Position numbers and translations under genes: made by a program
Shown here: piece by piece, positions 381 to 43,078 of the stretch
Layout: every line of letters begins with the position of its first letter
Numbering within the stretch: position 1 is the stretch's first letter
IMG/VR virus record: IMGVR_UViG_3300045988_169798
Span: 1 to 43,078 of that record
Length of the DNA: 43,078 nucleotides
Strand: one strand, 5' to 3'
Source: a virus
The notes under the pieces: model-generated
The model's input: the letters and a program-made list of their open reading frames with translations, nothing else
The model's database searches: none
Told to the model about the DNA's origin: nothing

Positions 381-381
381 A

Positions 382-3488: not shown

Positions 3489-3496
3489 TAATCATC

Positions 3497-4222: not shown

Positions 4223-4225
4223 TTG

Positions 4226-4234: not shown

Positions 4235-4331
4235 GCATAAACAAGGGTCACTGAAGGAGGGCTGCAAAGCCCAAAAGTAGTTGCCTGAAAACATTACAAT
4301 AACCGCACGGTCGAAATATAGGAAACGCCCA

Positions 4332-4817: not shown

Positions 4818-4876
4818 AACACACTAGCCGCTATTCTAAAAAGTAAAACACTAGAAAGAAACGGAAACCAACTAAA

Positions 4877-5809
4877 ATGGCCGTGTTTGATTCAGGCAAG
4901 GCGAAGGTCCTCATGCCTCGGCAGATCGCCGACGGTATCATTGCTCGCACCCAGACTCTCTCCACCGTCGCTAAGCTCAACGGCGGAATCCCCATGACCT
5001 TCGGCGACGTGGACATTATCACGTTCGATAATTTCCCGCGCGCCGAGTTCGTTGACGAGGGTGCTGAAAAGGCGCCCACGTCCGGTGAGTTCGGTTACGT
5101 GACCGCTAAGCCGCACAAGGCGCAGGTCACTATGCGATTTAACGAGGAGGTCCAGTGGGCCGACGAGGACTATCAGCTGGACGTCCTCAACCAGCTCGCC
5201 CAGAAGGGCAGCGAGGCGCTTTCCCGCGCCCTCGACCTCGGCCTTTACCACCGTGTTAACCCCCTGACGGGCGCCGTTATCGACGCGTGGACCAACTACC
5301 TGACCTCCACCACCAAGAGCGTCGAGATCGGCACTACGGAGATGGACCAGGCGATCCGCCAGGCCGCCGGTCTGCTCATTAACGACAATGACGCGCCGAT
5401 TACCCCCACTGGCCTTGCGCTTGCCCCGTCCGCCGTTTGGGCGCTCGGCAGTCTCCAGACCAAGAATGCCGACGGTTCCCCCTCGGGTACGCCGCGTTAC
5501 CCGCAGATCGGCCTCGGCGTCGACATTGACAACTTCATGGGGCTCCCGGTCGCTGCTGGAAACACGGTTGCCGGCAAGCCCGAGGCGACCACCGCCACCA
5601 ATGTCGAGGGCATTGTCGGTGATTTCGTCGACGGTATCCGCTGGGGAATTCAGCGGTACCTGCCGCTCGAGATTATCCGTTTCGGTGACCCGGACGGTCA
5701 GGGCGACCTGAAGCGTCGGAACCAGATTGCTCTGCGTCTCGAGATTCTGTACGCCTGGTACGTTTTCTCGAACAAGTTCGCGACGATTAAGACCAAGGCC
5801 GGCGCCTGA
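4877..5809 (+). CDS. Major capsid protein (HK97-fold type)
   Basis: 310 aa, in the position after the scaffold. Sequence character typical of the Phage_capsid family. Ordinary highly-expressed-gene codon usage. Confidence 0.85.
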   Translation: MAVFDSGKAKVLMPRQIADGIIARTQTLSTVAKLNGGIPMTFGDVDIITFDNFPRAEFVDEGAEKAPTSGEFGYVTAKPHKAQVTMRFNEEVQWADEDYQLDVLNQLAQKGSEALSRALDLGLYHRVNPLTGAVIDAWTNYLTSTTKSVEIGTTEMDQAIRQAAGLLINDNDAPITPTGLALAPSAVWALGSLQTKNADGSPSGTPRYPQIGLGVDIDNFMGLPVAAGNTVAGKPEATTATNVEGIVGDFVDGIRWGIQRYLPLEIIRFGDPDGQGDLKRRNQIALRLEILYAWYVFSNKFATIKTKAGA

Positions 5810-5877
5810 TAAAATCGCCATAAAGAAACAAAACACAACCCATCCAAAACAAGTTTTTCCCAGGGGCGATTTCGGAA

Positions 5878-6087
5878 ATGCGATCCTACAAGCACCGAGA
5901 CCACGACATTGTGATCCATCTCGCAGACGACCACAATGTGGAGCTCGGAGACGAATACACCGAAATCACTCCCGGGAATGATGGCGCTGGCGGGGCAGAC
6001 GAGCCCACCTCCTCCTCCCCTCGTACTGCCCCGCCGGCACCCGCCCCTCGTCGGGGACGAGGCCGCCCCAGAAAGACTGCCAAGTGA
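5878..6087 (+). CDS. Hypothetical 69-aa protein with an AT-hook-like C-terminus
   Basis: Acidic N-terminal half and a PRRGRGRPRKTAK tail. Its stop overlaps the GTG start of the next gene (GTGA). Confidence 0.45.
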   Translation: MRSYKHRDHDIVIHLADDHNVELGDEYTEITPGNDGAGGADEPTSSSPRTAPPAPAPRRGRGRPRKTAK

Positions 6088-8577: not shown

Positions 8578-8972
8578 CGATTCTCCCACCACTACTCCGC
8601 GAGTATGGGTGGGAGATAGAAGCAGACCTGCAACGATACTACAACACCGATCTTCTCGATCTGTATCGCGGCAGAATAACCCCACGGCGGGTAATGGTAC
8701 TTATCGGCGGGCTTCCGCCAGGGTCGACATTCGACAGGGCGCGAGGCGGAGACAGATACTGGTCCGACGAAGTAGCCGCCACAATAATGTCAGCACACAA
8801 TATCCAGACCGCGCTACTCGCCGTCAATGGCGTCAAGAAAGACAAGTGGCCCGAGGCGCCGAAACCACCGGCTGAAGGATACCGGGAAACCGGTAACCCC
8901 AAGGTGTCAAGCAAGCACGCTAAAGCACAAAAGGCCAAGGGTGAGAAATGGCTCGCCCGATACGGCAGCTGA
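8251..8972 (+). CDS. Tail assembly chaperone GT fusion (via -1 frameshift at 8568-8574)
   Basis: The -1 frame (same frame as track ORF 8694..8972) reads ...LLREYGWEIEADLQRYYNTDLLDLYRGRITPRRVMVLIGGLPPGS, typical of T extensions. Confidence 0.6.
8568..8574 (+). other. -1 programmed ribosomal frameshift site G_GGA_AAC
   Basis: Canonical X_XXY_YYZ heptamer in the zero frame, 1 codon before the G stop. The -1 frame stays open to 8972. Confidence 0.7.
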
Positions 8973-8995
8973 CCCGCGTTTCTATTGGATAGTGT

Positions 8996-9052
8996 AAAAT
9001 GGTTCACGCCAAGACAAACACGAAAAACGGTTTGCTTGGCGTGAACCATTTT
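8996..9052 (+). terminator. Strong hairpin between the chaperone and tape measure genes
   Basis: AAAATGGTTCACGCCAAG 8996-9013 pairs perfectly (18 bp) with CTTGGCGTGAACCATTTT 9035-9052; 21-nt loop. Confidence 0.45.
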
Positions 9053-9080
9053 CGCTACACACGATTTCGGAGAGGTATCG

Positions 9081-12000
9081 ATGGCCGGATATGATCTCGG
9101 GACCGCATGGATTCAGATCAGCCCGTCCGTGCGAGGCCTCGCCCGAAGTATCAATAGCGAAATCGGCAACGTCGACACGGGGCCGGCTGAAAGAAAGATC
9201 ACATCCGGCCTGGGTGGTGCGTTCAAATCGGTAGCGAAAGTTGCCGGCGCCGCGCTCGGAGGACTCGCAATCGGCGGCATCGCCGTCGCGTTCGGCGGCG
9301 TCGCAAAAGAAGCATTCAACGCGGCTGACGCCACGATCAAATTCAAGCAAACGCTCGCATTCGCCGGTAAAAGTGCGGACGAAATCAACGCGCTCACAAA
9401 AAGCACACGCTCCTACGCAGACCGCACGATTTATGAGCTCGACGACATTCAATCCATTACCGCGCAGCTCGCATCCAACGGTGTAAAGGGCTACGATAAG
9501 CTCGCCGAGGCGGCCGGTAACTTGAATGCTGTTGCTGGCGGGAATGCGCAGACGTTTAAAACGGTCGGCCTCGTCATGACACAGACCGCGGGCGCCGGAA
9601 AACTCACCACCGAGAACTGGAACCAGCTTTCCGACGCCATTCCTGGCGCATCCGGTAAATTGCAGGAAGCCATGAAAAAGAATGGCGCCTACACCGGCAA
9701 TTTCCGGGAAGCCATGGAAAAGGGCGAGATCACCGCCGAGGAATTCAACCAAGCAATCCTCGACCTCGGTATGGAGGACGTGGCCATTGAGGCCGCCACA
9801 TCCACCAAAACCCTGGAAGGCGCTTGGGGGAACTTCAAAGCGACCCTTGTGACCGGGGCGCAGGAAATCGCCGAAAAAGCACTCCCATGGATCACCGCAT
9901 CCCTTGACGCCATGAGCAAAGGGTTCGAAAAAGTATTCAACTGGGTGAGCAATTCGTTCATCCCCAGTATCACGAATGCTTTCAACGTTATCCGCAAGGG
10001 TGACTTCACGGGCCCAATCTTCTCGTTCGAGGAAGATTCGAGTTTCGTTGATTTCCTTTTCCGCATGCGTGATGCTGCCGCAGCCGCGGGGGAATGGATC
10101 AATAAGACACTCGTCCCGTCATTGAAGAATCTTAAAGATCTACTTCTGTCCGGTGATTTCACGGGGACGATTTTCGGATTCGACAAAGACTCCGGAATCA
10201 TCTCATACATCACCAACGTTCGTAACAGTTTCGTCGAGCTCGGTAAATTCATTGTCGGGACGCTCGTCCCCGGTATCGCTACCGCTCTCAGCACCATCGC
10301 GAACAGCAGCCTTGTCCAATTCATGGAAAGCTTGACCGTCGCTATTCTCAATAGTAAAGTGGCGGTGTACAGTATTGCAGCTGCGTTTACGGCATGGAAA
10401 GCCGTTATGGTAATGTCTTCAATGCAGCAATGGTTGAATGACATGGAAGGCGTGGCTGGGGTTGCCGGGCGTGTCACCACGGCCATTAACGCAATGACCG
10501 TGGCGAAAGTCAGAGATGTAGTTGAGACCGCGCAACTCAACCTCATGTACGCCGGCGAATTCCTGTCGAATATTGCGCGAGCAACGACGCAGATCACGAT
10601 GCAGGCGGTTGCTTGGGGTAGGGCCACGGCAATGATGGTCCTCCACAAGACAGCGACAATCGCCTCAACGGCGGCGCAGTGGGCATTCAACGCCGCAATG
10701 GACGCCAACCCAATCGGCCTCGTCGTAATCGCTATCGCAGCACTGGTCGCGGCAATCATTGTTGCATGGCAGAACTCCGAAACATTCCGCAACGTCGTCA
10801 TTTCCTGTTGGGAAGCAATCAAAACTGCCGCGGGCGCTGTAGCCGATTGGTTCGCCGCTAACGTATGGCCTCTCATGCAAGTCGCCTGGGACGGAATCGT
10901 GGCAGGCGCCCAATGGATGTGGGGCGTCATGGTATCCGTCTGGCAGGGAATGCAACCTGTTATTCAGGCGGTCATTGATTGGATCGTCGGCACCGCATGG
11001 CCCGCACTTCAGGCGGCCTGGGACGGGATCGTGGCAGGCGCCCAATGGGTATGGGACGGAATCGTCAGCGTCTGGCAAGGAATGCAGCCCGTTATTCAAG
11101 CTGTCGTTGATTGGATTGTAAATACCGCCTGGCCCAATCTTCAGGCCGCCTGGGATGGTATTTCTGCGGGCGCAATGATCGTCTGGAACGGGATGGTCGC
11201 AGCCTGGCAGGGGATCAGCGACATAATCCGACCCGTCGTCGATTGGATCGTCAACGTCGCTGCACTGTACCTCACTACAGCGTGGGATGCGATCAGCTGG
11301 GGTGTGAGTGCGCTCTGGTCCACGATTCAGTGGGCGTGGGACGCCATCTGGGCGGCAATCATGCCCGTCGCCACACAAATCTACAACGACATTTGGCCCA
11401 TGGTGGTCGGTGCGTTCAACGCCATTAAAGACACCGCTTCCATGATGTGGGCCGATATTCAGATCGCTTGGACCGCCATTCAAACCGCAATTCAGCCCGT
11501 TGCGGATTGGATTTACAATACGGTCTGGCCCTGGGTGGTAGGCGCGTTCAATGCGATTAAGGATACGGCCACTAACATGTGGTCTGATATTCAGAGTGCG
11601 TGGGCCGCAATTCAGGCGGCTATGCAGCCCGTCGTGGAATGGATCTACTACACGGCGTGGCCTTGGGTGGTCGACGCGTTCAACACAATTAAGGATGCGG
11701 CGTCCAATCTTTGGGGCACGGTTCAGGCCGCATGGACCTCAATTCAAGCGGCAATGCAGCCAGTGGTCGAATGGATCTACTACACGGCCTGGCCCTGGGT
11801 TGTCGACACTTTCAACACAATCAAAGACACCGCCTCCGCACTTTGGGGCACCATATCGGCGGCATGGAACGGCATTTGGGCCACCATTCAGCCCGTCGTT
11901 GATTGGATCTACAATATTGCGTGGCCGTGGGTGGTCGGAGCATTCAACGCCATTAAAGACACCGCGTCTATTATGTGGGGCTCCCTGTCGGCGACATGGA

Positions 12001-20165: not shown

Positions 20166-20416
20166 GAGACGCTCCGCAGAAGTAGGTTGCAACGCATCGC
20201 AGAATGCTCCGGGCCACAGGCTTCCTCGTGAGTCCATCCCGCTGAGACGCCGCGCTTCGTCGTCGCTGTGACACCGCCATCGGTGACCTCGATCTTCCCC
20301 GACGGGGAATCAATGACGGTAACTCCCGCACGGTCTGAAATGCGGGGCGACGGGATCGTGTCCCGCAATTCCTTAACAATCGCCAACGCGATTTCCCGCC
20401 GATCATTCTTGCTCAT
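20162..20416 (-). CDS. Hypothetical protein
   Basis: 84 aa. The ATG shares 1 nt with the dcd stop (TAATG). Confidence 0.5.
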   Translation of the reverse strand: MSKNDRREIALAIVKELRDTIPSPRISDRAGVTVIDSPSGKIEVTDGGVTATTKRGVSAGWTHEEACGPEHSAMRCNLLLRSVS

Positions 20417-20934
20417 TAGTCTACCTCCCGAGCGGACGGCGTAACCCCGGCCTGCCCTTGATAATGTGAGCCCAGACCATTGGTGCCGTACGGCATACTG
20501 GCGGGCCTGTCCAAGTCCTCGAAAGCAATCTGCGCAATCCTATCCCCCGGGAAGAGAAGAGCGGGTTTAGTGGAGTGCAGGTTAGCGATCTCCAGAGTCA
20601 CGTTTCCTTGGAATCCTGGGTCAATGTATCCCGCGGACACGTGGACGAGAATTCCGCGGCGCGCCCACGATGATTTGCCTTCCACCCTAGCTACAAGGTC
20701 GGCAGGCACATTGACTTTCTCCTGGGTGGACGCGAGAATAAACTCACCCGGCAACAGCTCATAACCATTCTCGCCGATGGTGACATTCTCATCACCGTGG
20801 CGGTAGGCGATAATGTTTTCGTCTAGCCGCACTTCCACCGACGCCGGCTGGATAGACAACGGCTTGCGCCAGTCGGAGATGAGCTCACCCCAATCGATTC
20901 TGCGTCGGAGAGTAAAATCACTCAGTGTAGCCAT
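20416..20934 (-). CDS. dcd: dCTP deaminase (possibly bifunctional dCTP deaminase/dUTPase type)
   Basis: 172 aa. Motifs VSAGYIDPGFQGNVTLEIANL and C-terminal SHYQGQ typical of Dcd/Dut-fold enzymes. Confidence 0.8.
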   Translation of the reverse strand: MATLSDFTLRRRIDWGELISDWRKPLSIQPASVEVRLDENIIAYRHGDENVTIGENGYELLPGEFILASTQEKVNVPADLVARVEGKSSWARRGILVHVSAGYIDPGFQGNVTLEIANLHSTKPALLFPGDRIAQIAFEDLDRPASMPYGTNGLGSHYQGQAGVTPSAREVD

Positions 20935-21389
20935 TGCGGTAGTCCCTCGTCTTCGTTTTCCTTGATCACATGGACCGTGTAACCTTTATCGCATAGGATT
21001 GCTTTGGCTTCAAGTGCAAGGGCGAGCTTCTCTCCCGGGATGATTCCTACCGTGTCCTTACCGCGCTCCGACAGTACGATTGCACAGACGTACGTACCAT
21101 CGTCCAGTGAGTCGCTGTAAGTGAGCACATACCCGCTTATCTCATCCGAATATGTGCACCTAGTAAAAGTGATCCTTCCTTCCCGCCATGAACGCAAGGC
21201 GAGTGTTACTCCCTGAACAAATTGAACGGTGTGCATAAGCCCACGGATCGCGCCAGGCGGATCGATAGCGTAACTCCTGATACTGAAGTTACAGTCATGG
21301 GCATGCATAAACGCAGCTGCACCCCACAGTTCACCACATTTTGCCAAATCGACGAAAGCAATATCAACAATATTCTCCACAATACTCAC
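20922..21389 (-). CDS. Hypothetical protein
   Basis: 155 aa. GTG start overlaps the upstream TGA (GTGA). Confidence 0.5.
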   Translation of the reverse strand: MSIVENIVDIAFVDLAKCGELWGAAAFMHAHDCNFSIRSYAIDPPGAIRGLMHTVQFVQGVTLALRSWREGRITFTRCTYSDEISGYVLTYSDSLDDGTYVCAIVLSERGKDTVGIIPGEKLALALEAKAILCDKGYTVHVIKENEDEGLPQWLH

Positions 21390-22390
21390 GCTTCCGGAAT
21401 ATAGCCGTTGAGGCGATCGTATGAAATGGCGGACGTGAACTCTGTGAGCCGGTCTCGAATTTCTCTGGCGCGATCCTCTGGGGTGAGCTGTCTGTTGATA
21501 GTGTCCCAGTGGACGTTTCGCAGAATTGCGATCGCCGTCTGGGCTCCCTGCTTGGCGACGAGTTCACGAAGATACCCCGCCGCCTTTCCCATGTCAATAT
21601 TCTCATCGACACCATCCTTGTGGCCGGCCCTGAGAATGTACTTCAAAGCACTACTGGTCAGATAGTCTTTGTCGCGAATAAAGGCGATGGGGGCGGGGTC
21701 AAGGGCCGCATAATGTGATGAGTGAGTTACCTCATTCTCGTGCACATTATTCTCGGCGCACCCGCCATTCTTCTCTGTGACATAGAGAGTGTCATCGCAC
21801 AAGGTCAACTCATAGCGCTGCTCGTCGAACGTGAGAAACGCTTCTCCCCCATTCTCGCCCTCATACCAAATACACCATTCGCCAGTGAAATACCTGCAAA
21901 CCTTCCTGACAGGCGCATAATAGCTGTCAGAAACACAAAAGCAAACCGGACCGTTCGTGAATTTCAGCTCGCAGCCAGGGTCAGTATGATACCTGCCAAT
22001 ACGCCGCCAACACCAACCATCATACTTCCGCTCCAGAGAAACATAGCGACGGCTCCAGCAATCTACTCGCCATTTACAAAAAGAATTGCGGCGGACGCGC
22101 ACCTCCCAGAAGCCATCATGCGACACTACCTTCAAAACATACTCGTATACGCCACTCGGGTAGTAAATCTTCTCACACTCATCATCTACAGGTGACACTA
22201 CATAATCTCCTTTCTCTGTCTTCGTGATTGAATACTCGTCGTATTTGAAATAGTGTCTTCGCTCTGCACCGCCATGAATAGAATCGAAACCAATCCCTTT
22301 GCTGTCGCCGGTTTGCGATATGATTCTCTCTTTACTGCCGTCCGGCAAGTACAGCCAAACCATTTTCAAAAACACCATGTCCACAGCCAT
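21386..22390 (-). CDS. Two-domain protein: Cys/Trp/Tyr-rich N-terminal region plus a DUF3310-like C-terminal domain
   Basis: 334 aa. C-terminal SHYAALDPAPIAFIRDKDYLTSSALKYILRAGHKDGVDENIDMGKAAGYLRELV fits the HY..I..I....KY..R..K....D..KA..YL pattern. Confidence 0.6.
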   Translation of the reverse strand: MAVDMVFLKMVWLYLPDGSKERIISQTGDSKGIGFDSIHGGAERRHYFKYDEYSITKTEKGDYVVSPVDDECEKIYYPSGVYEYVLKVVSHDGFWEVRVRRNSFCKWRVDCWSRRYVSLERKYDGWCWRRIGRYHTDPGCELKFTNGPVCFCVSDSYYAPVRKVCRYFTGEWCIWYEGENGGEAFLTFDEQRYELTLCDDTLYVTEKNGGCAENNVHENEVTHSSHYAALDPAPIAFIRDKDYLTSSALKYILRAGHKDGVDENIDMGKAAGYLRELVAKQGAQTAIAILRNVHWDTINRQLTPEDRAREIRDRLTEFTSAISYDRLNGYIPEA

Positions 22391-31530: not shown

Positions 31531-32921
31531 ATGAGGCCGCTCTCACGCAGACGCTCATACCCCGCCGCCAACCTGGGCTCCACAGCCGTCACGTCAACAG
31601 TGCCCTCACACTGCAAAAGAAAACGATTCACCCGTTTCGTTTGCCCCTTGCGATTCAAACGAGCAGACGCCTGCAAATTCAAAATCACACTATTATCTTC
31701 GCTCAACCAAATCTCAGTGTTGCAAACGTTCTGCAGACCGTCAATCCCTTCGGCAGCGGCCGCAATGACGGCACAGAGAATCCGTGGCCCATCGGGCTCC
31801 AAAAATCGTCGCCACTCATCCCTGTAATCGCTGGACAATTCAACACTCTGATAGCCAGCATCGGCCAATCGCTCTCTCAGAGGCGCCATGAATTTACGTG
31901 AATGACACCACAGAACAACTCTCTCGTCCGGGGGCAGATCAGACAGAATATCGAGGGTGGCGTCAATCTTCGAAGATTCTCGCTCCTCGAACTCGACACT
32001 ATCGCCCACGATCCTCAACGGTCCGAGAGTGACCTGTCTGAGGCGCCCGTCGAGAACGGCGGCGGACGAGGCCACACTGGCCCCACCATCCATAACCGCC
32101 AAACGATAATCCACGAACTCCCGGTACATCCTCTTCTGTTCACACCGCATCCCACAAGCAACGCGTTGAACATTCACAGGGGGAAGATCACCAAAAACCT
32201 CACTACCCCGCATCGCAGACCAAACATCACCCACAGAATCGCGGAGGACGCCAGGAGTCTTTTCGCCACCATAAATCCTGGCATACGGGGACGCCGCAAA
32301 AGGATTGAGCTGAGAGACAAAAAACTCATCCGCAAACCGGTAGAAACTACGGTCAACACTATCCGAGTTCAGAAATTTGAGAACACCATAAATGTTGACG
32401 GGTTTATTGCCGGCGGGCGTACCCGACAAACCAAGACGATATTTCGACTTCAATGCTTTCACTGCCCGGAAAGACTGGGTGCGGTGATTCGCAATGCGGT
32501 GAACCTCGTCCACTACCACCATGTCGAACGATTTCTTCGAGAAGGAAGCATTCGGCCACTTCCCCGCGTCCACGGCCTTTCCCAGTGAAACCAACAGCTC
32601 GAAATTAATGACCCACCAACCGTCCTCGCCGTTCAGCATGCTCTCAATGTTGGCGCGCCCCGCCTTAGTAGAGCGCGACAGTACTTTCGCTTCCCGGCCG
32701 GCAATGACCTTGACGCTGGCCTGCCATGACGGAATGACGCGCTTCGGGCACACAACAATGACACGCCTGGCAGCATTAAGTTTTTGTGTGACCCAGATGG
32801 CCCCGTATGTTTTGCCGCACCCCGGTTCCCATGCCAGCAAAGCACCACCACCGCCTCGAATCGCGGCGACGGTGCGGTTGATTTCTCTTTCCTGCGCCCC
32901 AGTGGGTTGAATATTAATCAT
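31527..32921 (-). CDS. SNF2-family (SF2) helicase
   Basis: Motif I EPGCGKT, motif II DEVH (VVVDEVHRI), motif III LSGTP, motif VI QASARLNRKGQ. ATG 32921 (MINIQPTG). Confidence 0.85.
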   Translation of the reverse strand: MINIQPTGAQEREINRTVAAIRGGGGALLAWEPGCGKTYGAIWVTQKLNAARRVIVVCPKRVIPSWQASVKVIAGREAKVLSRSTKAGRANIESMLNGEDGWWVINFELLVSLGKAVDAGKWPNASFSKKSFDMVVVDEVHRIANHRTQSFRAVKALKSKYRLGLSGTPAGNKPVNIYGVLKFLNSDSVDRSFYRFADEFFVSQLNPFAASPYARIYGGEKTPGVLRDSVGDVWSAMRGSEVFGDLPPVNVQRVACGMRCEQKRMYREFVDYRLAVMDGGASVASSAAVLDGRLRQVTLGPLRIVGDSVEFEERESSKIDATLDILSDLPPDERVVLWCHSRKFMAPLRERLADAGYQSVELSSDYRDEWRRFLEPDGPRILCAVIAAAAEGIDGLQNVCNTEIWLSEDNSVILNLQASARLNRKGQTKRVNRFLLQCEGTVDVTAVEPRLAAGYERLRESGLI

Positions 32922-32982
32922 TGAAATTCGTCCAAACAATCACTAGTAGGCAAATGATAAGCATGAACACGAGACGTGTCAT
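32914..32982 (-). CDS. 22-aa hydrophobic peptide ORF overlapping the helicase start
   Basis: GGAAAGGAAAGGG RBS, then ATG 32982: MTRLVFMLIICLLVIVWTNFND. Its last codons contain the helicase ATG (AATGATTAA). Confidence 0.4.
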   Translation of the reverse strand: MTRLVFMLIICLLVIVWTNFND

Positions 32983-33006
32983 CTGCCCTTTCCTTTCCAA
33001 TATGAG

Positions 33007-33042
33007 GAACCCCGCCCCATCATTGCTAACGGGGCGGGGTTC
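33007..33042 (-). terminator. GC-rich hairpin downstream of the 33053..33265 gene
   Basis: GAACCCCGCCCC 33007-33018 pairs with GGGGCGGGGTTC 33031-33042 (12 bp). Confidence 0.5.
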
Positions 33043-33052
33043 GTCGTGGTGG

Positions 33053-33265
33053 TCAGTGGGCGATGACGTGACGCTGCACGGCGTCCCAGTAGGCGTCCTC
33101 GTCCACGTCCACCACATAGTAGGGGGTTCCAGTGGCGGAGAAGTACTGTCCGATCACGTCGTCGGCGATCGCGGCAACATCGTAGCCGTCCATCTGGTCG
33201 AGCGTGGGGATGATGTCGTACATGATGACGTCGTCCCGGGTGCTGCGGCGAGCGATAGTGTCCAT
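33053..33265 (-). CDS. Small acidic hypothetical protein in a GC-rich island
   Basis: Polypurine RBS (GAAGAGAAG) before ATG 33265. 70 aa, Asp-rich, G/C-ending codons unlike its neighbours. Confidence 0.5.
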   Translation of the reverse strand: MDTIARRSTRDDVIMYDIIPTLDQMDGYDVAAIADDVIGQYFSATGTPYYVVDVDEDAYWDAVQRHVIAH

Positions 33266-33373
33266 GACTTCTCTTCTCTCTTCTCTTCGTGTCGGTGCCA
33301 CCGTTCCTCGGTGACGACCCTAGTATAGGCAGACCGTACGCTCTCCAGCCACCCCAAAATGGCGTGACCCTGC

Positions 33374-34276
33374 TCACATCTCCAGTTGGAGGAGAGATAG
33401 CGCCTTACCCACGGCCACACCCACGTCGCCACCGCACTCCAGTAGCCTCATACAATCGAAAACAGTGTGCGCCCGGCCATCCGCGAGCGGATCATCCGCA
33501 TGATGCGAGTAGACCAGACCACTGTCCAGCATCGTCACGCCCGGAGCCGTGCCACCACCACGCGCATACCGCCACCGCCGCCCCACCGACTCGTAAGGCC
33601 AACCAAACAAACCGACAAGATCATTAAACCCATACTTTGAATTGAATTCCCCAATCACACCACCATAACCACCATCAGGCACAGAAGACAAAGAAACACC
33701 ACCATCGCCTTTCTCCTCATACCCGATATTCTCCAACCACTTATCAACATTCAAACGAGCACCATCAATGAGCCAATTGCGTACCCTCAAACCAAGACGA
33801 TGTGACGGTAGGAAAAAAGCTCGAGACGCCTCAGCGCACGACCCATCCCACTGGGCCACGGGCCCCAACACACTGAAGCACGTCCGGCTAATCGACTCGC
33901 ACTCCCCCACGGTCATGCTGCGAGTACAAGGCAGAACGACGCGGAAACGCGGAGACGGAAAAGACGACGACGCCGTCTCCCACACAATACCGGCGAGATT
34001 CGCCGCACGCATACGATCCCCGACAAAATCTTTCCGCGACCCATGATCCGCGTCCAAAACAATAGCGGACCGGGACACGAAATTCCTCTTCTGCCGCCTG
34101 CCCCCCGAAAGAATGCCAGCAAAAAAAGCTGGAGCATCATTCTTCTCACATTTCGAGGGCACCTCACACAAGGCAGCAAAATCACTCAAATTTACGTTGG
34201 TAGCACGCCACCCTGTGACGGAACGGACATTGCCCGCTACCATCGCAGGAAAACGCACACCGAAAACATCACTCAC
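33374..34276 (-). CDS. Putative primase / replication initiation protein (AEP/Prim-Pol-like; weak motif evidence)
   Basis: 300 aa. D-x-D-like IVLDADHG, RFRVVLPC, FFLPSH. GTG start overlaps the upstream stop (GTGAGTGA). Adjacent to the helicase-like gene. Confidence 0.4.
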   Translation of the reverse strand: MSDVFGVRFPAMVAGNVRSVTGWRATNVNLSDFAALCEVPSKCEKNDAPAFFAGILSGGRRQKRNFVSRSAIVLDADHGSRKDFVGDRMRAANLAGIVWETASSSFPSPRFRVVLPCTRSMTVGECESISRTCFSVLGPVAQWDGSCAEASRAFFLPSHRLGLRVRNWLIDGARLNVDKWLENIGYEEKGDGGVSLSSVPDGGYGGVIGEFNSKYGFNDLVGLFGWPYESVGRRWRYARGGGTAPGVTMLDSGLVYSHHADDPLADGRAHTVFDCMRLLECGGDVGVAVGKALSLLQLEM

Positions 34277-35840
34277 TGTACGACGGTTCCGCTATCTGAT
34301 CCCGCAAAATCGCTTCCACGAGATCATTATCCACAATAGCGCCTTCCGTCCGAAACTTCACGCCCCGACGAAGAATATACTGCCGATACTCTTCCACGCT
34401 ACGCGGGGACAGATTTTTCGCCTCCAGCACTTGGTAAAGGCGCGTCTCGGTCGGCGGATTACTACTGAAATTATCCACCATACGCGTCAAATCCGGAACA
34501 AAAACATAATCGACCATTTTCAGCGCGTCGGGAAGCCAGAAATCGGCGGCTAGGCTGAAAGCTTTCCGAACGGCGGACGATGACACGCTCATCTGCTGCT
34601 CGAAAAGAGATAGAATAGCGGCCACGCGCATAATGTGATTCCCCATGCGGTCAATGACCGCCTGTACTGCCCGCTGGAAAGGCGACTCGCGAGCCGCCTC
34701 CCTACCCCAGTCTCGCATTGTTTCCACCCAAACATTCCGGGCCGACTCAGTCACAGTCATAGTAGCCGGCGTATTAACAGGCCAAAATTCGGTGGCGCAA
34801 GTGACAGTGCCACGGAATTCGTGCTGCATCATACCCAGCATCGTGGAAATGCGCTCGGAAGCATGCTCAACAAAACCATCACCACCATGCGCATTCCGGT
34901 CGTTGTTGGTGATCCATCCGAAAGACGACGGATCAGACTGGTGATTCTCCTCGTCCAACGCGAAAAGAATGCGCGGTCCCCACCCAGTCTCGAATAGGGA
35001 CTGTGACATGTTATCGACTACGTCGCCGAGGATTCCGGTGCCGCAGAAAGCAAAAGAATGAGGAACCCTATCACTGTCAGCCCGCTTGACACCATCGTCG
35101 CCAACACGCACAGACTCGACAGTCCTACCCGAGTAGACGTCGGTCAAGAAACCGATAAGCCCGCTACGATAACCCTCACCCTGTGACGCGGAATACATAT
35201 TCTGTAGTTCGTCTACGAACATGATAGACGCCCCACCAGGCCGCTGCGCCATCCGCAAATTCAAGCCTTCGGCCGTTACGTTCGACCCGAACAAAACATT
35301 CGCCATAAGGGACCGCTCGCACGGACTATTGTCGATACTGTTCAGCAAATCCTTACGATCAGCCTCGAACTCGGCGATGCGACTATTGATATCGTCCCGC
35401 TCGACACGATACTCATCAATATCAATACGCCCACTCCTCTTTTCCAGGGATTCCAGGCGACGATACAGCATGCGGAGTGCCGAATCACACTCCCGTACGG
35501 CCGCCAAAAGCGCTGACGAATCCCACCGGAACGCCTCCACACAATCGTCAAAAAACCCGCGCACCAAAGACTGTGCCGTCGTCTTCCTCGACAAAGTAGA
35601 CGCCCCAAGACAATGCGAATACAAAGTCAACGGCACCATACTCTGCGCGCTCGCAGACAGATGAGTTCTCGCAGACAACGGGGCAGACACCATCGTCAAG
35701 AAAGTCGTCCACAAAAACCTGGGAGGCGTCTCCGGCGACTTAGACTGCAAATAGTCAATGATCCTGTCAGCGAACCAATCATAATGCACACCCCCACACG
35801 GGAACGCAAACTCGTAATCCGCAACCCTCTCAACACTCAA
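34269..35840 (-). CDS. Putative primase-associated helicase/ATPase (DUF3987-like)
   Basis: 523 aa. Walker B-like IMFVDEL, degenerate P-loop GASTLSRKT. TTG start coupled to the upstream TGA. Confidence 0.4.
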   Translation of the reverse strand: MSVERVADYEFAFPCGGVHYDWFADRIIDYLQSKSPETPPRFLWTTFLTMVSAPLSARTHLSASAQSMVPLTLYSHCLGASTLSRKTTAQSLVRGFFDDCVEAFRWDSSALLAAVRECDSALRMLYRRLESLEKRSGRIDIDEYRVERDDINSRIAEFEADRKDLLNSIDNSPCERSLMANVLFGSNVTAEGLNLRMAQRPGGASIMFVDELQNMYSASQGEGYRSGLIGFLTDVYSGRTVESVRVGDDGVKRADSDRVPHSFAFCGTGILGDVVDNMSQSLFETGWGPRILFALDEENHQSDPSSFGWITNNDRNAHGGDGFVEHASERISTMLGMMQHEFRGTVTCATEFWPVNTPATMTVTESARNVWVETMRDWGREAARESPFQRAVQAVIDRMGNHIMRVAAILSLFEQQMSVSSSAVRKAFSLAADFWLPDALKMVDYVFVPDLTRMVDNFSSNPPTETRLYQVLEAKNLSPRSVEEYRQYILRRGVKFRTEGAIVDNDLVEAILRDQIAEPSYSE

Positions 35841-36151
35841 TTGTCTTCCGCCTCCACATGGGCAAGAAAACTATTGAAAGCGTCAATAATTTCATCGCCG
35901 TCGAAAGTATAACCGACGTCGAACATGAGGCCCCAGTATCGGTTTGTTTGTTCGAAAATCGTCGCCTTGTAGCCGCGGACAGTATCCGCTTCGAAAACGA
36001 ATCTATGCCCAGGCGATGCGACGACAATGCGGATGCTATTGTTCCAGGCGCTTACTTCCAGGCCGAGCGAATCGTTCCCGCCCTTGCTGGCGTAATTCTT
36101 GCACGCCTCGGTGACATGCTTCAGGAATTCCCAGTCGAATAGCTTGATCAT
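35837..36151 (-). CDS. Hypothetical early protein
   Basis: ATG 36151 overlaps the upstream TGA. 104 aa. Confidence 0.5.
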   Translation of the reverse strand: MIKLFDWEFLKHVTEACKNYASKGGNDSLGLEVSAWNNSIRIVVASPGHRFVFEADTVRGYKATIFEQTNRYWGLMFDVGYTFDGDEIIDAFNSFLAHVEAEDN

Positions 36152-36456
36152 TTGTCCTCCCACAGTTTTGTCTTGATTTCGTCGAGCAACTCCTGAAATC
36201 CCCATCCCCCGTCTCCATTCACTGTTGTTATCGTTTCGTCCATGTCGACCTCTCGAACACTCACCGAATACTCGCCACCCACAATGGAGAGAGTGCACCC
36301 ATATTGTTTCCCGGTGACGTCCAAGTAGAGGACAGACAGATCACTGTCCAGTATGGCGTCCTCCCCAGTATCCAATAGGATGGACTTGCAGCGCGGGTCA
36401 TTGAGCATCTCCGCAATGAACTCAGTCACAATATGACGTAGCTCGTCGTCAATCAC
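36148..36456 (-). CDS. Hypothetical acidic early protein
   Basis: 102 aa, D/E-rich. GTG 36456 overlaps the upstream TGA. Confidence 0.5.
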   Translation of the reverse strand: MIDDELRHIVTEFIAEMLNDPRCKSILLDTGEDAILDSDLSVLYLDVTGKQYGCTLSIVGGEYSVSVREVDMDETITTVNGDGGWGFQELLDEIKTKLWEDK

Positions 36457-36788
36457 GATTCTCGCCCTTCCACCATGCCAGCCAGCTCCATGAAGTTATT
36501 CACAGCATGAACGATCATGCCCTGGTCAGCATCACGCTCGTCCGAGAGGACATGATTCGACAGTTGAATAACGCGAACCCGCCATTCATCATCCTTCGTG
36601 ACAACAATTCTGAAGACGGTCCTATCGACAGGATTCATAGCCCGCGCTTTGAAACGAACCACGGAAAGATCGCCGTTGTCACTGTAGCAACGCAAGCCAA
36701 CAGACCCGCAGTGAGACCACCTAACAAAATCGCCAACACAGCTAGCGAGGAAAGCGAACACCGCCCTGTCAATGCTGGAGTCACTCAT
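36453..36788 (-). CDS. Hypothetical early protein
   Basis: ATG 36788 in an ATGAGTGA overlap with the upstream stop. 111 aa. Confidence 0.5.
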   Translation of the reverse strand: MSDSSIDRAVFAFLASCVGDFVRWSHCGSVGLRCYSDNGDLSVVRFKARAMNPVDRTVFRIVVTKDDEWRVRVIQLSNHVLSDERDADQGMIVHAVNNFMELAGMVEGRES

Positions 36789-37062
36789 TGCCAGCCCCCT
36801 TGCCGCGGTTCGCCGCGACAATCAAAGCACGGTGGACGAACTCACCAACACTCTCCGGAGGAATCGCCGTGCTCTTCCGCTTAACATGCCTTGCCCTCAC
36901 CGTGTCGCCGGCGACCACGATACGGCAGGTGCTGCCGATAGTGATGATGCCGCCGTCGTAAACCTTGCGGGCAGGCGCATGCACGTTGAACTCATGGCGG
37001 CGCCCGTCATCATTCCACTCACGAACCGCCTGAGCGATAACCGTCTCGAAAACTGTACCCAT
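36781..37062 (-). CDS. Hypothetical early protein
   Basis: 93 aa. GGGAAGAGAGAG RBS upstream of ATG 37062. Confidence 0.5.
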   Translation of the reverse strand: MGTVFETVIAQAVREWNDDGRRHEFNVHAPARKVYDGGIITIGSTCRIVVAGDTVRARHVKRKSTAIPPESVGEFVHRALIVAANRGKGAGNE

Positions 37063-37124
37063 AATATACTCTCTCTTCCCAAATATTGTGATGAACGCTA
37101 CTGTCCTGTTAATTGTGGAGGGGA

Positions 37125-37613
37125 TTAAATATCGAAGCCGATCACTTCCTCCACGGGCACGCCCACCAAATCACACAAATCAACCAGCCTGTCCCGCGCA
37201 TCAGACCAGGCGCACTCCCATATCGGCGAACCCTTATCACTGTCCCGCATTTCTTCCAGGCAAAGAATGAAATCATTCACCAAGCGACTACTTTCTTCTT
37301 TCCTCTCGTGGCGCTTAATGTGCTTGCAAATCCACCTGGCCGCAACCCCGGTATTCTCACCGACAGTGACAATTTTCTGCCACCAAGCATCCGCCGTCGT
37401 CTCTTTCGAACTGAAATACCACGCCGTCGGCCTACCACTATCAAACACGTACGTTTCAACAGTACCAACCTTAGTGTCCCAAATAATGACAGTGAAATCA
37501 TCGCCGTCATAATGGGACGTGGCAGGCGGCATATTCTCCCGAATAAACCCCATCTCAATATCCCGATCAGTTACCCCTTCATCGTTGGGGCCATCATATT
37601 CAAACCATAACAT
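37125..37613 (-). CDS. Hypothetical early protein
   Basis: 162 aa, Trp/Asp-rich, ATG start. Confidence 0.5.
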   Translation of the reverse strand: MLWFEYDGPNDEGVTDRDIEMGFIRENMPPATSHYDGDDFTVIIWDTKVGTVETYVFDSGRPTAWYFSSKETTADAWWQKIVTVGENTGVAARWICKHIKRHERKEESSRLVNDFILCLEEMRDSDKGSPIWECAWSDARDRLVDLCDLVGVPVEEVIGFDI

Positions 37614-37649
37614 TATTCTCTCCTCTCGTTTCCTTGGAATTGCGGTGGG

Positions 37650-38564
37650 TCAGACGATCACACTGTCAGGAATCTCCCGGATACGAACACAGAACCATCC
37701 CCACACCTCCTCCACAGCATCCGACCGGTCAGGAGAATCCAATCTGCCAGGGATAAGCTCGACACCACCCCTACCCGCGCCCTCAACAATCTGCCCAATA
37801 ATTTCACCATTGAAATAGGCGACAATCAAAGAATCCTCCGCCATTGCAAGAGTAATACCACAAGCGTCCGCCGCTGAAGTGAGACCCTCTATGACCGAGG
37901 CACCTACAACAAGACGGTCGAACATTTCCTGCACCTTGTCCGCAATATTCTCAGTACGGACCACGCCAATATTGGTCCCCCACTGGAGAGTCTCAATATT
38001 GTCCACGGTCAACGCGACCTCGCCGGAAACGAACATCATCTCACCAATCGGTGCCGTGTAAACGTGGAACCGCATTGAATGTGTGAGCGGCCTCTTCGGC
38101 CTTACCCCAATAGCATCCCCAACGGGAGTGCGGGAATGCGAAACAATGGGATCATGGGAGATGTCATCCACGAACTTGTCCCAGATGGGGCGTTTCGACG
38201 CGTCCTCCCCAATAAGCGGGTCAATATCCAGCTCGACGCCGCTCCGCCTCATAGCAACCATCATGGTGCCAATCGCCATCCCGCCGGACGACACTGTCAG
38301 AGCCGAAAACTCGTCCTCGTCAACATAGAGACCATGCTCATCGGCCAGGGTAAGAATGCGGTCATAAATCCTCGCCGCAGCCACCATGGAAGCCAGTCCC
38401 TCATTAGCAGAACGGCGGTCGTCCGGAAAATCGGGGAAATAGGCGGGTATGAGGCGATCGGACAGAAGAATATCCTCCCCGTCCATGATCTGCGTTGTGC
38501 CGTCCAACCAAATACCCCGCGACCAATTCGTGATGTCAATTGTGAAATGCGCGGCATAAAACAT
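37650..38564 (-). CDS. Hypothetical early protein
   Basis: GAAGGGGAAGAGGA RBS before ATG 38564 (MFYAAHFTIDITNW...). 304 aa. Confidence 0.5.
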   Translation of the reverse strand: MFYAAHFTIDITNWSRGIWLDGTTQIMDGEDILLSDRLIPAYFPDFPDDRRSANEGLASMVAAARIYDRILTLADEHGLYVDEDEFSALTVSSGGMAIGTMMVAMRRSGVELDIDPLIGEDASKRPIWDKFVDDISHDPIVSHSRTPVGDAIGVRPKRPLTHSMRFHVYTAPIGEMMFVSGEVALTVDNIETLQWGTNIGVVRTENIADKVQEMFDRLVVGASVIEGLTSAADACGITLAMAEDSLIVAYFNGEIIGQIVEGAGRGGVELIPGRLDSPDRSDAVEEVWGWFCVRIREIPDSVIV

Positions 38565-40558: not shown

Positions 40559-41192
40559 GTGGGGTGAGTAGTGTCGGTTCTGCACGCCGATCTCTCACCG
40601 TTTCCGTTCATCTTTCGTTTACTTTGTTCACCTCCCGTTTACTTTCTACGCATGTGGGTTGTTTGCTAACAACTGGTTTTCTAGGGTTAAAACACCCGTT
40701 TGTGTTAGTACAATGTTGGTGCGTGTCGTCACACTTTCTGCCCTTGTAGCAAGGGATCGTGTCGATGCTTTTGGTGGGATTGCAACGTTTAGTCCCTGTT
40801 GGAGTGCCTTTGTTGGCAGTGTTTGTTGTGGTGACTTTGGTCCCGTATGCTACACTCGAGTAGACGAATCGTCGAAGACGATCACGGCGTAGCCGCCGAG
40901 GAGCCCTAGCGACGCAGGCGAGCGTTACGCCGTGGGTGTTTTCGAAGAGCTCGCCACTGTGTTGGGCCCAACCTATACTCTTAAAAGAGTACTAGAATTG
41001 GACAGTGTCTAGCTGTGTTAGACGGTGTCTAATTGGGAAACAGTTGTTATAACGTAATTGGTGTTCAATGGTGAACATGACGGTCGTTAATAGTGAACAG
41101 TGTGTGGTGTAAACAACAGACACTGCGTGGTGGTAAACAACACACCCAATAAGAAGACACGCAACACAAAACACAAAGGCGCGTGTTGCGTT

Positions 41193-41225
41193 ACGTGCGT
41201 GCTCGCAAAGCTGCGCGCGCACTAC
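41193..41225 (+). repeat. 33-bp perfect direct repeat, copy 1 (acgtgcgtgctcgcaaagctgcgcgcgcactac)
   Basis: Identical to 41878-41910. Internally self-complementary (GTGCGTGC / GCGCGCAC). Confidence 0.9.
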
Positions 41226-41399
41226 GCAACACACGCCAATCCAAAACAAAAAGAAAGCGAAGAAGAGAAAGAAGAAGAAAAGGAAAGGAGAGGAGAGAAG
41301 AGAGTAGTGTTAGACGGTGGAGGCGCTCGTCTCGCTGACGCTGCGACGCGCCACCACCTAACACAAACATAAACAAAGAAAAGGAAGAGAAAAATAGCG

Positions 41400-41744
41400 G
41401 TGAGCAGAACAAGCACCAGGGAACACAAACAATTCAGAAAACAAGTACTCGCCAGAGCACAAGCCATGGGCATCACACACTGCCCAGCATGCGGGATCAA
41501 ACTCCAATACAACAACAACGGACAACGCAAACCCAACAGCGCCGAAGCAGACCACATAATCCCAGCATCACTAGGCGGAACCAACCACCCAGACAACGGC
41601 AGAGTGTTATGCGCCAAATGCAACAGCAGACGCGGCAACGGACGACACGGCAAAGGAAGAGCACGCCACTACCAGAAAAACGATAACGAACGAGACAGAC
41701 TACCAATCGCCGTCATGCCCACCGAACACTCCGACACATGGTAG
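41400..41744 (+). CDS. HNH endonuclease
   Basis: 114 aa. CPACG ... EADHIIPASLGGTNHPDNGRVLCAKCNSRRGNG (H-N-H with CxxC pairs). GTG start. Confidence 0.8.
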   Translation: MSRTSTREHKQFRKQVLARAQAMGITHCPACGIKLQYNNNGQRKPNSAEADHIIPASLGGTNHPDNGRVLCAKCNSRRGNGRHGKGRARHYQKNDNERDRLPIAVMPTEHSDTW

Positions 41745-41745
41745 G

Positions 41746-41761
41746 CACACACCGCCATTCC
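41746..41761. repeat. Right arm of the 16-bp perfect inverted repeat (CACACACCGCCATTCC)
   Basis: Exact reverse complement of 40543-40558. Begins 2 nt after the HNH stop. Confidence 0.85.
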
Positions 41762-41877
41762 GTAACAGAAGAAAAGACGAAAAGACGAAAAAACAAAGAA
41801 GGGCGGGGCGCAAAGAGAAGACAGGAGAAGACAAGAGAAACAACAGGAAGAGGAAGACACAGTGGTGTTCGGGGATA

Positions 41878-41910
41878 ACGTGCGTGCTCGCAAAGCTGCG
41901 CGCGCACTAC
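41878..41910 (+). repeat. 33-bp perfect direct repeat, copy 2
   Basis: Identical to 41193-41225. Confidence 0.9.
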
Positions 41911-42482
41911 CCCGAACACCACACACAAAAGACAAGACAGGAGAAAACACGAAGAAGAGCAGGACAACGCAAGAGGGACAAAGACAATACGAAAGGGGGA
42001 GACCCAACCCAAAGACAGGGACAACACAGTACACCCCTCCCGCCATTCAACGAGACCACCATGCAAACAGAAAGGGGGACACCACACACAAGACGGGGAG
42101 TCAGTAACACTGCCACCCTTCCCCCGTCATGCCACCCCGTCTCACCATGCCACCCCACCATCCACGATGGCCCCACCCACCACCAACGTGAGGGGGGTGC
42201 AAGTGAAGGATACCCCACCACACGAACAGCACAGACAGATACATGCACCGCCACACGCCACACACCTGGCAACGAACAGTAGCATGACATGATCGCAGTA
42301 CTGATGAGTACTGCACCGGGATGGACAGGGCAAGGACTACACCACTGGACCGGGCGGACCGGTAGCAGTACACACCACCGCCATTCCACACACCACACAC
42401 AAACGAGGAGAGACGGACACCATCCACTCATCCACTCTCACACTGTTCACGTTCACACACACCAACGAACAATCACGATCAA

Positions 42483-42516
42483 CGTTGATCAATCATCGTT
42501 CAATGATTGATCAACG
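42483..42516. repeat. 14-bp perfect inverted repeat with a 6-nt spacer in the AT-rich island
   Basis: CGTTGATCAATCAT cgttca ATGATTGATCAACG. Confidence 0.9.
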
Positions 42517-42672
42517 AACAATGAATGATGAACATGATGATGATCAATGTTCATCATGATCATGAACATGATGAACATGATGATGATCATGTGATGATGA
42601 TGTGATGCATGACATGCATACCAATACCATGCACCATGCATGGTGCCAACGCATGCCACAAGGCAAGCACAA

Positions 42673-42696
42673 CGCACAAACGCACAAACGCACAAA
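42673..42696 (+). repeat. Tandem 8-mer (CGCACAAA) x3 leading into phased A-tracts
   Basis: cgcacaaacgcacaaacgcacaaa read directly from the sequence. Confidence 0.85.
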
Positions 42697-42971
42697 AATG
42701 CATAAAAACAAAAGAAATGTTACAAAAAAATGCAAAAACATTCAAAGCACGAACAAACAATGGCGTTCAAAAAAACCATGGCAACATTTCAGGGCGAACA
42801 CGAAGGGGGCCCCAACACAATAAGGGATCCCTTAAAGTAGGACCCACGTCACAAAACAAAACAGGAGACACAACAAAACGAGACGCACACCACACAATTC
42901 ATGTGACGGGGGCCCCCCCCCTCCCCCATCCGGCCACGAACACCCCGAAGGTCTGCCCATCCCTCCCTGCT

Positions 42972-42992
42972 TGTGGAAAACCCTGTGGATAA
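42972..42992 (+). promoter_or_regulatory. Two further boxes of the same iteron array
   Basis: TGTGGAAAA 42972-42980 and TGTGGATAA 42984-42992, 12 bp apart, same orientation as the boxes at 5-56. Confidence 0.6.
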
Positions 42993-43023
42993 CTCCAGTA
43001 ACCCACATCACAATGTGACCGTC

Positions 43024-43078
43024 GTCATGTGGAAAACTCCCAAACCTGTGGAAAACCCTGTGGATAACCCTGTGGAAA
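43024..43078. repeat. Terminal direct repeat copy 2, identical to 1..55
   Basis: Exact 55-nt identity with the window start. Confidence 0.95.

Follow-up and report, generated by a model that had tools for sequence, protein, structure and literature searches.

The DNA analysed here is the IMG/VR virus record IMGVR_UViG_3300045988_169798 over its whole length of 43,078 nucleotides (hereafter "the window"), and the element in question is an array of six 9-mers resembling DnaA boxes, the sites bound by host DnaA, which spans the junction of the two record ends between an HNH endonuclease gene and the terminase genes. The window is the complete genome of a siphovirus-type, HNH-dependent phage of the cos (cohesive end) type with actinophage-like genes. 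The 55 bp repeated at its two ends, the only terminal repeat in the window (no long one was found), stem from the assembly of a circular or concatemeric read graph and not from a biological repeat, and their removal leaves a unique circle of 43023 bp. The array itself is a real conserved feature, far from chance expectation, in a position resembling that of cosB. Reading across the junction, the locus holds the following:

41400-41744, plus strand: HNH endonuclease gene (PHROG HNH families, E 1.6e-16; Pfam HNH/HNH_5, E 2e-10)
42420 to about 42903-42950, no strand: conserved non-coding block of about 480-540 bp, identity to relatives 0.83-0.96
42904-42953, no strand: putative right-end cos flank, a G5C9TC5 tract and then CCGGCCACGAACACCCCGAAGGTC, nearly invariant in the family
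42954-42968, no strand: 15-nt TGCCCATCCCTCCCT, the predicted physical left end and a possible cohesive-end segment
42972-42992, plus strand: DnaA-box pair 1, TGTGGAAAA at 42972-42980 and TGTGGATAA at 42984-42992, with a 3-bp spacer
43008-43018, no strand: palindrome TCACAATGTGA, present in a single copy in the genome, between pair 1 and box 3
43024-43078, no strand: terminal overlap of 55 bp, an exact copy of 1-55
43028-43036 (= 5-13), plus strand: DnaA box 3, TGTGGAAAA
24-56, plus strand: DnaA boxes 4-6, at 24-32 (24 = 43047; TGTGGAAAA), 36-44 (36 = 43059; TGTGGATAA) and 48-56 (TGTGGAAAA), exact CCTGTGGAWAAC units in a 12-bp register, the part that varies in number among relatives
63-91, plus strand: promoter-like site TAGGCA-17-TATAAT, with the -35 at 63-68 and the -10 at 86-91
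99-380, plus strand: small-terminase-like gene (terS; 93 aa, a weak match to phrog_1459, E 7e-5)
382-1875, plus strand: large terminase gene (terL; phrog_9, E 1e-45)

With the overlap removed, the six boxes, all matching TGTGGAWAA on the plus strand, lie inside 127 bp, and the rest of the genome contains just two further copies, both on the minus strand (34327 and 39130), the chance expectation being 0.61 matches per window, with a maximum of 2 in dinucleotide shuffles. The initial annotation had the coordinates, orientation and number of the boxes right, along with the 12-bp start-to-start distance (i.e., 3-bp spacers) of the last three, which is also that of pair 1; its placement of every box within a CCTGTGGAWAAC unit holds exactly for four of them, the other two lying in units with one mismatch (CTTG.. 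and CATG..). Its description of TGTGGAAAA as one mismatch away from the canonical box is literally true, yet this is no defective box, as TGTGGAAAA (reverse complement TTTTCCACA) satisfies the accepted DnaA-box consensus TT(A/T)TNCACA (quoted in bioRxiv 10.1101/866236).

Likeness to bacterial oriC arrays and conservation among relatives

The 12-mer CCTGTGGATAAC comprises box R1 of the Escherichia coli oriC together with its flanks, and was found in the mnmG-mioC spacer of 5417 of the 5426 complete E. coli genomes. When the tandem 24-mer was sought in one genome per bacterial species, at least 120 loci were obtained, those listed spanning Proteobacteria, Cyanobacteria, Deinococcus-Thermus, Acidobacteria, Clostridia, Saccharibacteria, Actinobacteria and others, with no prophage copy of the window among them. 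In 42 of the 120 listed loci, dnaA and/or dnaN (as judged by Pfam and tblastn) is no more than a few hundred bp from the 24-mer, with recF, gyrB and yidC close by; at these dnaA/dnaN loci the 24-mer belongs to longer arrays of GTTATCCACAGG units in a 10-12-bp register, and many bacterial oriC loci show DnaA-trios of the CTACTACTA type farther downstream.

As a separate observation from the same scan, the exact pair CCTGTGGATAACCCTGTGGAAAAC sits at a conserved chromosomal locus other than dnaA/dnaN in the high-GC Actinobacteria Nocardiopsis (L127, L131, L144, L163, L180, L198) and Micromonospora (L130, L155), flanked as ..GCTACCCACAG[pair]CTGATCAAGGC.., where it may serve DnaA outside an origin, for instance at a regulated promoter or as a datA/DARS-like element. 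A "protein cluster" of about 451 aa beside the box pairs of the Nocardiopsis genomes turned out to consist of spurious high-GC open reading frames (ORFs).

Conservation was assessed on 37 distinct arrays from close relatives. An exact-pattern scan of IMG/VR had given more than 118 contigs, 29 of which (joined by more from a second scan) are relatives of 42-43 kb with 85-93% identity, several coming from samples with Human Microbiome Project-like IMG identifiers. The arrays contain 5-9 boxes each (most often 7), mostly paired at 12 bp, and 246 of the 251 boxes are perfect. Departures are concentrated (61 of 64) at box position 7 (A in 190, T in 59 and C in 2 boxes), which is the degenerate third position of TT(A/T)TNCACA, while five boxes deviate at the last base; the flanking C residues are retained. 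Among the relatives covering pair 1, not one of the 18 box columns varies, as opposed to 23 of the 46 neighbouring non-box columns. Counted from the left end (mapped below), pair 1 occupies nt 19-27 and 31-39 in 36 of the 37 arrays, being shifted by 1 nt in the remaining one (L029), and box 3 stands at nt 75 in nearly all relatives. The distal cluster is more variable, with 2-6 boxes, arranged as a triplet in the window and in most relatives as two pairs 19-20 or 29-32 bp apart. The palindrome TCACAATGTGA is likewise kept in the family while the bases around it vary, which makes it a candidate site for a dimeric phage protein. The boxes suspected in the initial annotation are, thus, indeed conserved in relatives.

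Since the 12-mer and the 24-mer are shared with bona fide oriC regions, and since variation within the family is nearly confined to the degenerate position, it is strongly supported that the six 9-mers are genuine high-affinity, oriC-grade DnaA boxes arranged head-to-tail with 3-bp spacers, and host DnaA quite probably binds the array in the infected cell.

Clusters of DnaA boxes classically mark origins of replication, and an origin spanning cos, in which the array and the AT-rich palindromic region at 42480-42780 would together open the DNA and load a helicase (on circular or concatemeric DNA only), has several points in its favour: there is AT-rich DNA to the left of TGTGGAWAA, just as the E. 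coli unwinding element lies to the left of R1; the conserved non-coding, repeat- and AT-rich block of about 540 bp beside cos keeps the reading alive; box pairs elsewhere adjoin O-like initiator genes or AT-rich repeats (L021, L061); and neither Pfam nor the PHROGs scans that were run revealed a DNA polymerase gene in the phage. The array shares its 9-mer, flanks (CCTGTGGATAAC = R1) and 3-bp spacers with oriC arrays (both the E. coli R1/R4-type and the head-to-tail boxes of dnaA-dnaN regions), yet, unlike them, it sits 18 nt from a cohesive end and has no dnaA or dnaN, unwinding element or DnaA-trios beside it. Its flanks are of 43-77% GC, and DNA of 37% GC or less is reached only after 190-280 bp, across a tract of 65-77% GC and the cos cut. 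As for the trios (repeated 3'-GAT-5'), neither a run of three or more CTA/TTA or TAG/TAA nor one of four or more NTA or TAN was found within about 700 bp to the left and 250 bp to the right of the array, such runs being obvious in bacterial oriC loci. The phage also has a helicase, a prim-pol and a primase-helicase of its own about 8 kb away, and initiators of this kind normally use their own origin; the boxes of Arthrobacter phage Tiff81 and of the viral contig L080 (both described below) lie between coding sequences without an unwinding element; and no GC-skew switch occurs at the junction, skew being of limited value as an indicator in phages. Plasmid and phage-plasmid origins (P1 oriR, pSC101, F, RK2) carry host DnaA boxes by their iterons, together with an AT-rich region within about 100 bp and a Rep gene. 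The window resembles them in that a mobile element recruits host DnaA boxes, an origin context also being seen in viral contigs with O-like initiators, and differs in that its replication genes are about 8 kb from the boxes. The phage origin entertained in the initial annotation is, therefore, weakened, and we consider it unlikely.

Genome end, small terminase and late promoter

At least eight IMG/VR contigs and one independent Logan assembly start at the base homologous to 42954 (TGCCCATCCCTCCCT...); one relative (L088) has an Illumina adapter remnant fused to that very base, and another (L100) shows the extra T expected from adapter ligation. The flank on the other side is homologous to the right ends of cultured cos phages (Rothia phage Spartoi, MrSmee, G4 and Tiff81), with the same succession of a G-run/C-run, ..ACGAACACCCC.. 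and the end. Because of these independent contig starts, the adapter remnants and the right-end-like flank, the cos cut is placed at 42953/42954, the predicted physical left end, with the array starting 18 nt inside. Enrichment of arrays at contig ends was discarded as evidence for a terminus, as tandem repeats break assemblies (L016, L252). The 15-mer TGCYCATCCCTCCCY occurs at both ends in one contig (L059 and L245) and, on this single case, may be the cohesive end.

With the end at 42954, the array from 42972 to 56 and terS from 99, the cosB-type position proposed in the initial annotation, along with a terminus close to the array, is borne out. In lambda cosB, the R sites of gpNu1 are interleaved with the IHF sites I1 and I2 between cosN and Nu1. 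The window is similar in the position of its array between the cos cut and the small terminase gene, in the combination of host-factor sites with a candidate phage-protein palindrome and in the span of about 120-170 bp; it differs in that the host-factor sites are predicted DnaA boxes, not IHF sites, and in that the terminase has an HNH partner.

The closest cultured phages by large terminase (TerL) are cos phages of Arthrobacter, Rothia and Propionibacterium freudenreichii (46-50% identity), which likewise have HNH as their terminal gene; HNH as the final gene ahead of the cos region is typical for HNH-dependent cos phages. Although their terminal sequences and small terminases (TerS) have diverged from those of the window, a single exact TTTTCCACA begins 19-23 nt from the left end in each of the TerL relatives MrSmee, AbbyDaisy, Spartoi and the G4 group, and also in MargaretKali, which was found by its similar left end. 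The left ends of the Arthrobacter/Rothia/P. freudenreichii phages (positions 1-35 of L239, L240, L241, L267 and L275) read AGCGAT(A/C)T...C-rich...T-run, then CCACA, while MargaretKali retains TTTTCCACA within a different terminal sequence.

The 93-aa TerS-like product has solely close homologues in a database of 5.8 billion proteins, and resembles gene 1/2 of MrSmee, Spartoi, G4 and AbbyDaisy at 17-22% identity, with equal length and pattern. An AlphaFold2 model of it (predicted local distance difference test score, pLDDT, 56, too poor for a fold search) gave two helices and no confident helix-turn-helix. Could the boxes, then, be iterons in a 12-bp register for the phage's own small terminase (or HNH/TerL), with the DnaA likeness being coincidence or mimicry? 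The cosB position is what such iterons would have, in-phase repeated sites suit ring-shaped small terminases, and phages with related terminases have, at a similar distance from the end, a T-run and then CCACA, which is an exact TTTTCCACA in the closer relatives and degenerate in PA6 and Fionnbharth. Against this, 11 of 12 positions of the site agree with the DnaA consensus and its variation keeps to what DnaA boxes themselves allow, so that an unrelated protein would have had to copy that consensus, degeneracy included, in several TerS families; the predicted TerS seems to lack a confident DNA-binding domain (as far as so poor a model can be read), and the same 9-mer/24-mer occurs by cos and terminase genes in phages whose TerS is unrelated (184 aa in Tiff81, Terminase_4 in L080) or only 17-22% identical. 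The small-terminase iterons listed first among the three readings of the initial annotation, which chose none, are hence not favoured, and we hold them improbable, whereas the DnaA-box identity and the cosB-type position that it also named have stood.

A box-bearing genome end also brings to mind T5-like phages, which have eight DnaA boxes in 3-bp-spaced pairs in their terminal repeat (bioRxiv 10.1101/866236), a role in the T5 injection stop having been put forward as a hypothesis (Davison, bioRxiv 10.1101/866236). By analogy, membrane-associated DnaA might hold the box-bearing end during or after injection, and box pairs are found near the record ends of several cultured phages. The T5-like iss/LTR (long terminal repeat) pairs and the array here have in common that they are phage DnaA boxes in 3-bp-spaced pairs near a terminus and were judged unlikely to be an origin (bioRxiv 10.1101/866236). 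The T5 boxes, however, belong to inverted repeats at a depth of 5-9 kb in a 10-kb terminal repeat, and roughly half of them depart from the consensus (bioRxiv 10.1101/866236), whereas the window has a direct array of perfect boxes, 18 nt from the cos end, and no long terminal repeat. Moreover, it is the end next to terS that bears the boxes, the one expected to enter last if the phage behaves like lambda, in Tiff81 they are at the opposite end, and no A1/A2-like (two-step injection) families are among the Pfam hits; with the T5 model being itself hypothetical, anchoring of the entering genome is very improbable here.

Downstream of the array, the initial annotation had also pointed to a -35/-10 pair and to the ATG at 99, and both are upheld: the promoter-like site at 63-91 is the sole consensus match within positions 1-400, against 0.1 expected, and the ATG opens the 93-aa terS frame. 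The -10 CATATAAT is kept in relatives at a constant 7 nt before the terS ATG, the -35 is not kept, and the bases between the -10 and the ATG are not conserved. As the -10 is only 7 nt before the ATG and no consistent Shine-Dalgarno sequence is seen in relatives, the terS mRNA is likely leaderless.

Might the array, then, regulate this promoter, with bound DnaA activating or repressing terS and thereby tying packaging-gene expression to the host DnaA state? DnaA is a known transcription factor (dnaA, nrdAB, lambda pR), 29 nt separate the end of the array from the conserved -10, the last box keeps its distance to the -10 and the ATG within 1 nt over the 37 arrays (the rest of the distal array being variable), and the retention of the -10 without the -35 points the same way. 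On the other hand, 5-9 boxes over 110-170 bp exceed what an operator needs, the promoter itself is merely a consensus match, and the reading does not generalise, as Tiff81, Auxilium, L080 and the MrSmee-type phages have either no room for a promoter at their boxes or boxes in a different relative position. The sites are not scattered through the genome, and Pfam found no repressor or integrase, which speaks against an operator array of a phage repressor (e.g., stoperators). Control of the late promoter, which as an operator array was the third reading of the initial annotation, is neither confirmed nor refuted and, in our estimate, quite unlikely.

A possible role of host DnaA at cos

Boxes beside the packaging genes are by no means restricted to the close family. 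Arthrobacter phages Tiff81 and Auxilium, with another TerS (184 aa), have 3-4 boxes between the HNH stop codon and the G/C tract, about 45 nt before the right end. Around box pairs in some 54 unrelated IMG/VR lineages of 34-73% GC, two classes of neighbours recur, namely, large terminases and O-like replication initiators. In L080, a Pfam HNH gene is followed after 16 nt by a box pair over the start of a Terminase_4 small-subunit gene and then by TerL; in the L007 group, the pair is 91 bp ahead of an HNH-TerL fusion; and in L003, L115 and L061 (the last with 12 boxes), pairs stand 250-900 bp upstream of TerL. In Tiff81 and L080, the boxes are squeezed between coding sequences, which leaves no space for either an origin or a promoter. 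Judging from these comparisons, HNH, boxes and terminase have come to stand in this order repeatedly, with different TerS families. Among cultured phages, tandem boxes are also found in T5-like phages (in the terminal repeat), some T7-like Klebsiella phages, cyanomyoviruses, Microviridae and Microbacterium phages.

Two of these settings deserve a description of their own. In a viral lineage of 51% GC (L021, positions 8970-9150, minus strand; L004, L011, L064, L106 and others), a RusA gene has five TGTGGATAAC boxes downstream of it and, after these, some 75 bp of GATC-rich TAAGATC/TAAGAC repeats, an arrangement that resembles a DnaA-dependent phage origin. Squashvirus-type phages, exemplified by Microbacterium phage Judebell (L272, positions 340-500), have a pair GTTTTCCACAGGATTATCCACAGGG about 340 bp from the left end and a TTACTACTA motif about 110 bp beyond it, reminiscent of box-plus-trio origins.

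So wide an occurrence might also suit a DnaA sink, in which hundreds of phage copies, each with 5-9 strong boxes, would titrate host DnaA and keep the host from starting further rounds of replication, the cos position being simply where non-coding DNA exists. Titration by DnaA-box clusters is established in bacterial chromosomes (datA), the boxes here are of the highest-affinity type, their number varies freely among relatives, and box pairs occur in very diverse viral contigs (34-73% GC) and many contexts. A sink would, nevertheless, leave unexplained both why the first box keeps its distance to the genome end in diverged lineages and why boxes occur in tight HNH-terS junctions, which makes it an improbable account of the array.

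The reading that we favour, if tentatively and at less than even confidence, has host DnaA assisting the HNH-terminase complex at cos as an accessory factor. Along the order HNH gene, non-coding block, G/C tract, cos cut, box pair, palindrome, box, triplet, -10, terS and terL, host DnaA would be loaded on the array beside cos as an accessory or architectural factor of the cos nucleoprotein complex, and the bound DnaA would bend or organise the DNA so that the small helical TerS, TerL and HNH could assemble and cut, much as IHF does in lambda cosB, with the palindrome TCACAATGTGA serving as a phage protein's own site. A packaging role is preferred because the boxes recur by cos, HNH and terminase genes, because the distance of the first box from the end is fixed across diverged lineages, and because some boxes sit in junctions too tight to accommodate an origin or promoter. 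That DnaA has been co-opted into an IHF-like cosB role across many HNH-dependent cos phages of Actinobacteria and other hosts is a broader and more doubtful proposition, which would account for the repeated occurrence of oriC-grade pairs between HNH and terminase genes. The oriC-like geometry here also lent itself to a melting of the cohesive ends with the help of DnaA, an idea that was dropped, as the orientation is reversed in Tiff81 and the MrSmee-type phages.

A number of points weigh against a packaging role of DnaA. The support for it is wholly comparative, and we know of no report of DnaA as a packaging factor; literature searches for DnaA boxes at cos or terminase sites returned nothing relevant beyond T5. 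The geometry is not conserved, the boxes being left of cos in Tiff81 and right of it in the window, and the single box of the MrSmee-type phages, while at the place of the first box of the window, has the opposite orientation. Propionibacterium acnes phage PA6 retains just TGTGG there, the Fionnbharth box has one mismatch, and the element nearest the end could be an ancestral terminase/HNH contact that simply looks like a DnaA box. Phages evidently put DnaA boxes to more than one use, as pairs beside O-like initiators in other lineages indicate, and the concentration of phage non-coding DNA at cos and terminase genes inflates any association with them. Finally, with the host being a matter of guesswork, the consensus used may not be the own preference of its DnaA.

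Whichever use is the true one, perfect oriC-type pairs stand at a fixed 18 nt inside a cohesive end, and they recur between HNH and terminase genes in unrelated phages over hosts of 34-73% GC. Outside oriC, DnaA boxes are known to help origins, to titrate DnaA or to act as operators, and, to our knowledge, those of phages have been noted mainly in T5. Should DnaA take part in recognising or cleaving cos, packaging would have a new host-factor dependency, one that links host replication status to virion production, and this would explain how very small, helix-only small terminases locate their site. Even as an origin or a titration site, the array would offer a clean, testable case of a phage exploiting a universal host protein, which the census suggests to be widespread.

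Gene layout and other observations

Beyond the locus, the genome falls into two large blocks of opposite strand:

99 to about 19.6 kb, plus strand: late genes (terS-like, terL, portal, protease and capsid, then tail and lysis)
about 19.7-39.6 kb, minus strand: early genes, including Sak4, an exonuclease, a helicase, a prim-pol and a DUF3987 primase-helicase

Pfam searches of 68 ORFs gave no integrase, no repressor and no DnaA domain-IV-like or other DnaA-like DNA-binding domain, and an Rfam scan of the window gave no RNA family. Going by the TerL relatives and the human-sample identifiers, the host may be guessed to be Rothia or another member of the Micrococcaceae.

The HNH frame is unbroken in all 23 relatives compared, with variation of 0.064/0.023/0.139 over the three codon positions. 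Between this gene and the ATG at 99 there is a gene-free stretch of 1.35 kb, within which identity to relatives is 0.4-0.8 over 41745-42420, as opposed to 0.83-0.96 in the non-coding block, which is as conserved as the HNH gene. The block shows no coding signal, its variation being even over codon positions and its frames broken in most relatives. The ORFs at 42609-42992, 42602-42823, 42289-42510 and 41884-42282 were rejected as genes for want of a codon-position pattern, and the two whose frames were checked (42609-42992 and 42602-42823) are disrupted in relatives. The block is a candidate for an origin, a packaging(-termination) element or a regulatory element. Its part at 42483-42600 is dense in AT-rich palindromes of the TGATCA type (e.g., perfect 14-nt arms at 42483-42496/42503-42516) and in repeated ATGATGAACATGATGATGATCA units, and an A-rich tract of 23-37% GC follows at 42691-42780.

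The HNH gene is, furthermore, flanked by a 53-nt direct repeat (ACGTGCGTGCTCGCAAAGCTGCGCGCGCACTAC..., 83% identical) at 41193-41245 and 41878-41930, each copy of which overlaps or adjoins an inverted repeat (41178-41237, and perfect 13-nt arms at 41862-41874/41910-41922). The downstream copy is an island of conservation (0.94) amid variable DNA, and the repeat may be a terminator or the trace of a mobile HNH cassette.

The plus strand has an extreme A+C bias at about 41150-43078, 1-6000 and 32000-38000, with an AT skew of up to +0.9 and a GC skew down to -0.4; this bias continues at 32-38 kb, where the genes are on the minus strand, and is thus not simply a coding-strand effect. It results in T/N/P/H-rich proteins (e.g., TerS) and in long spurious ORFs on the A-poor minus strand. 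A dCTP deaminase/dUTPase-like gene (20416-20934, minus strand; Pfam DCD, E 2.6e-32) lies among the minus-strand genes beside the lysis region and, together with a nucleotide-kinase-like ORF at 21386-22390, hints at nucleotide-pool manipulation or DNA modification.

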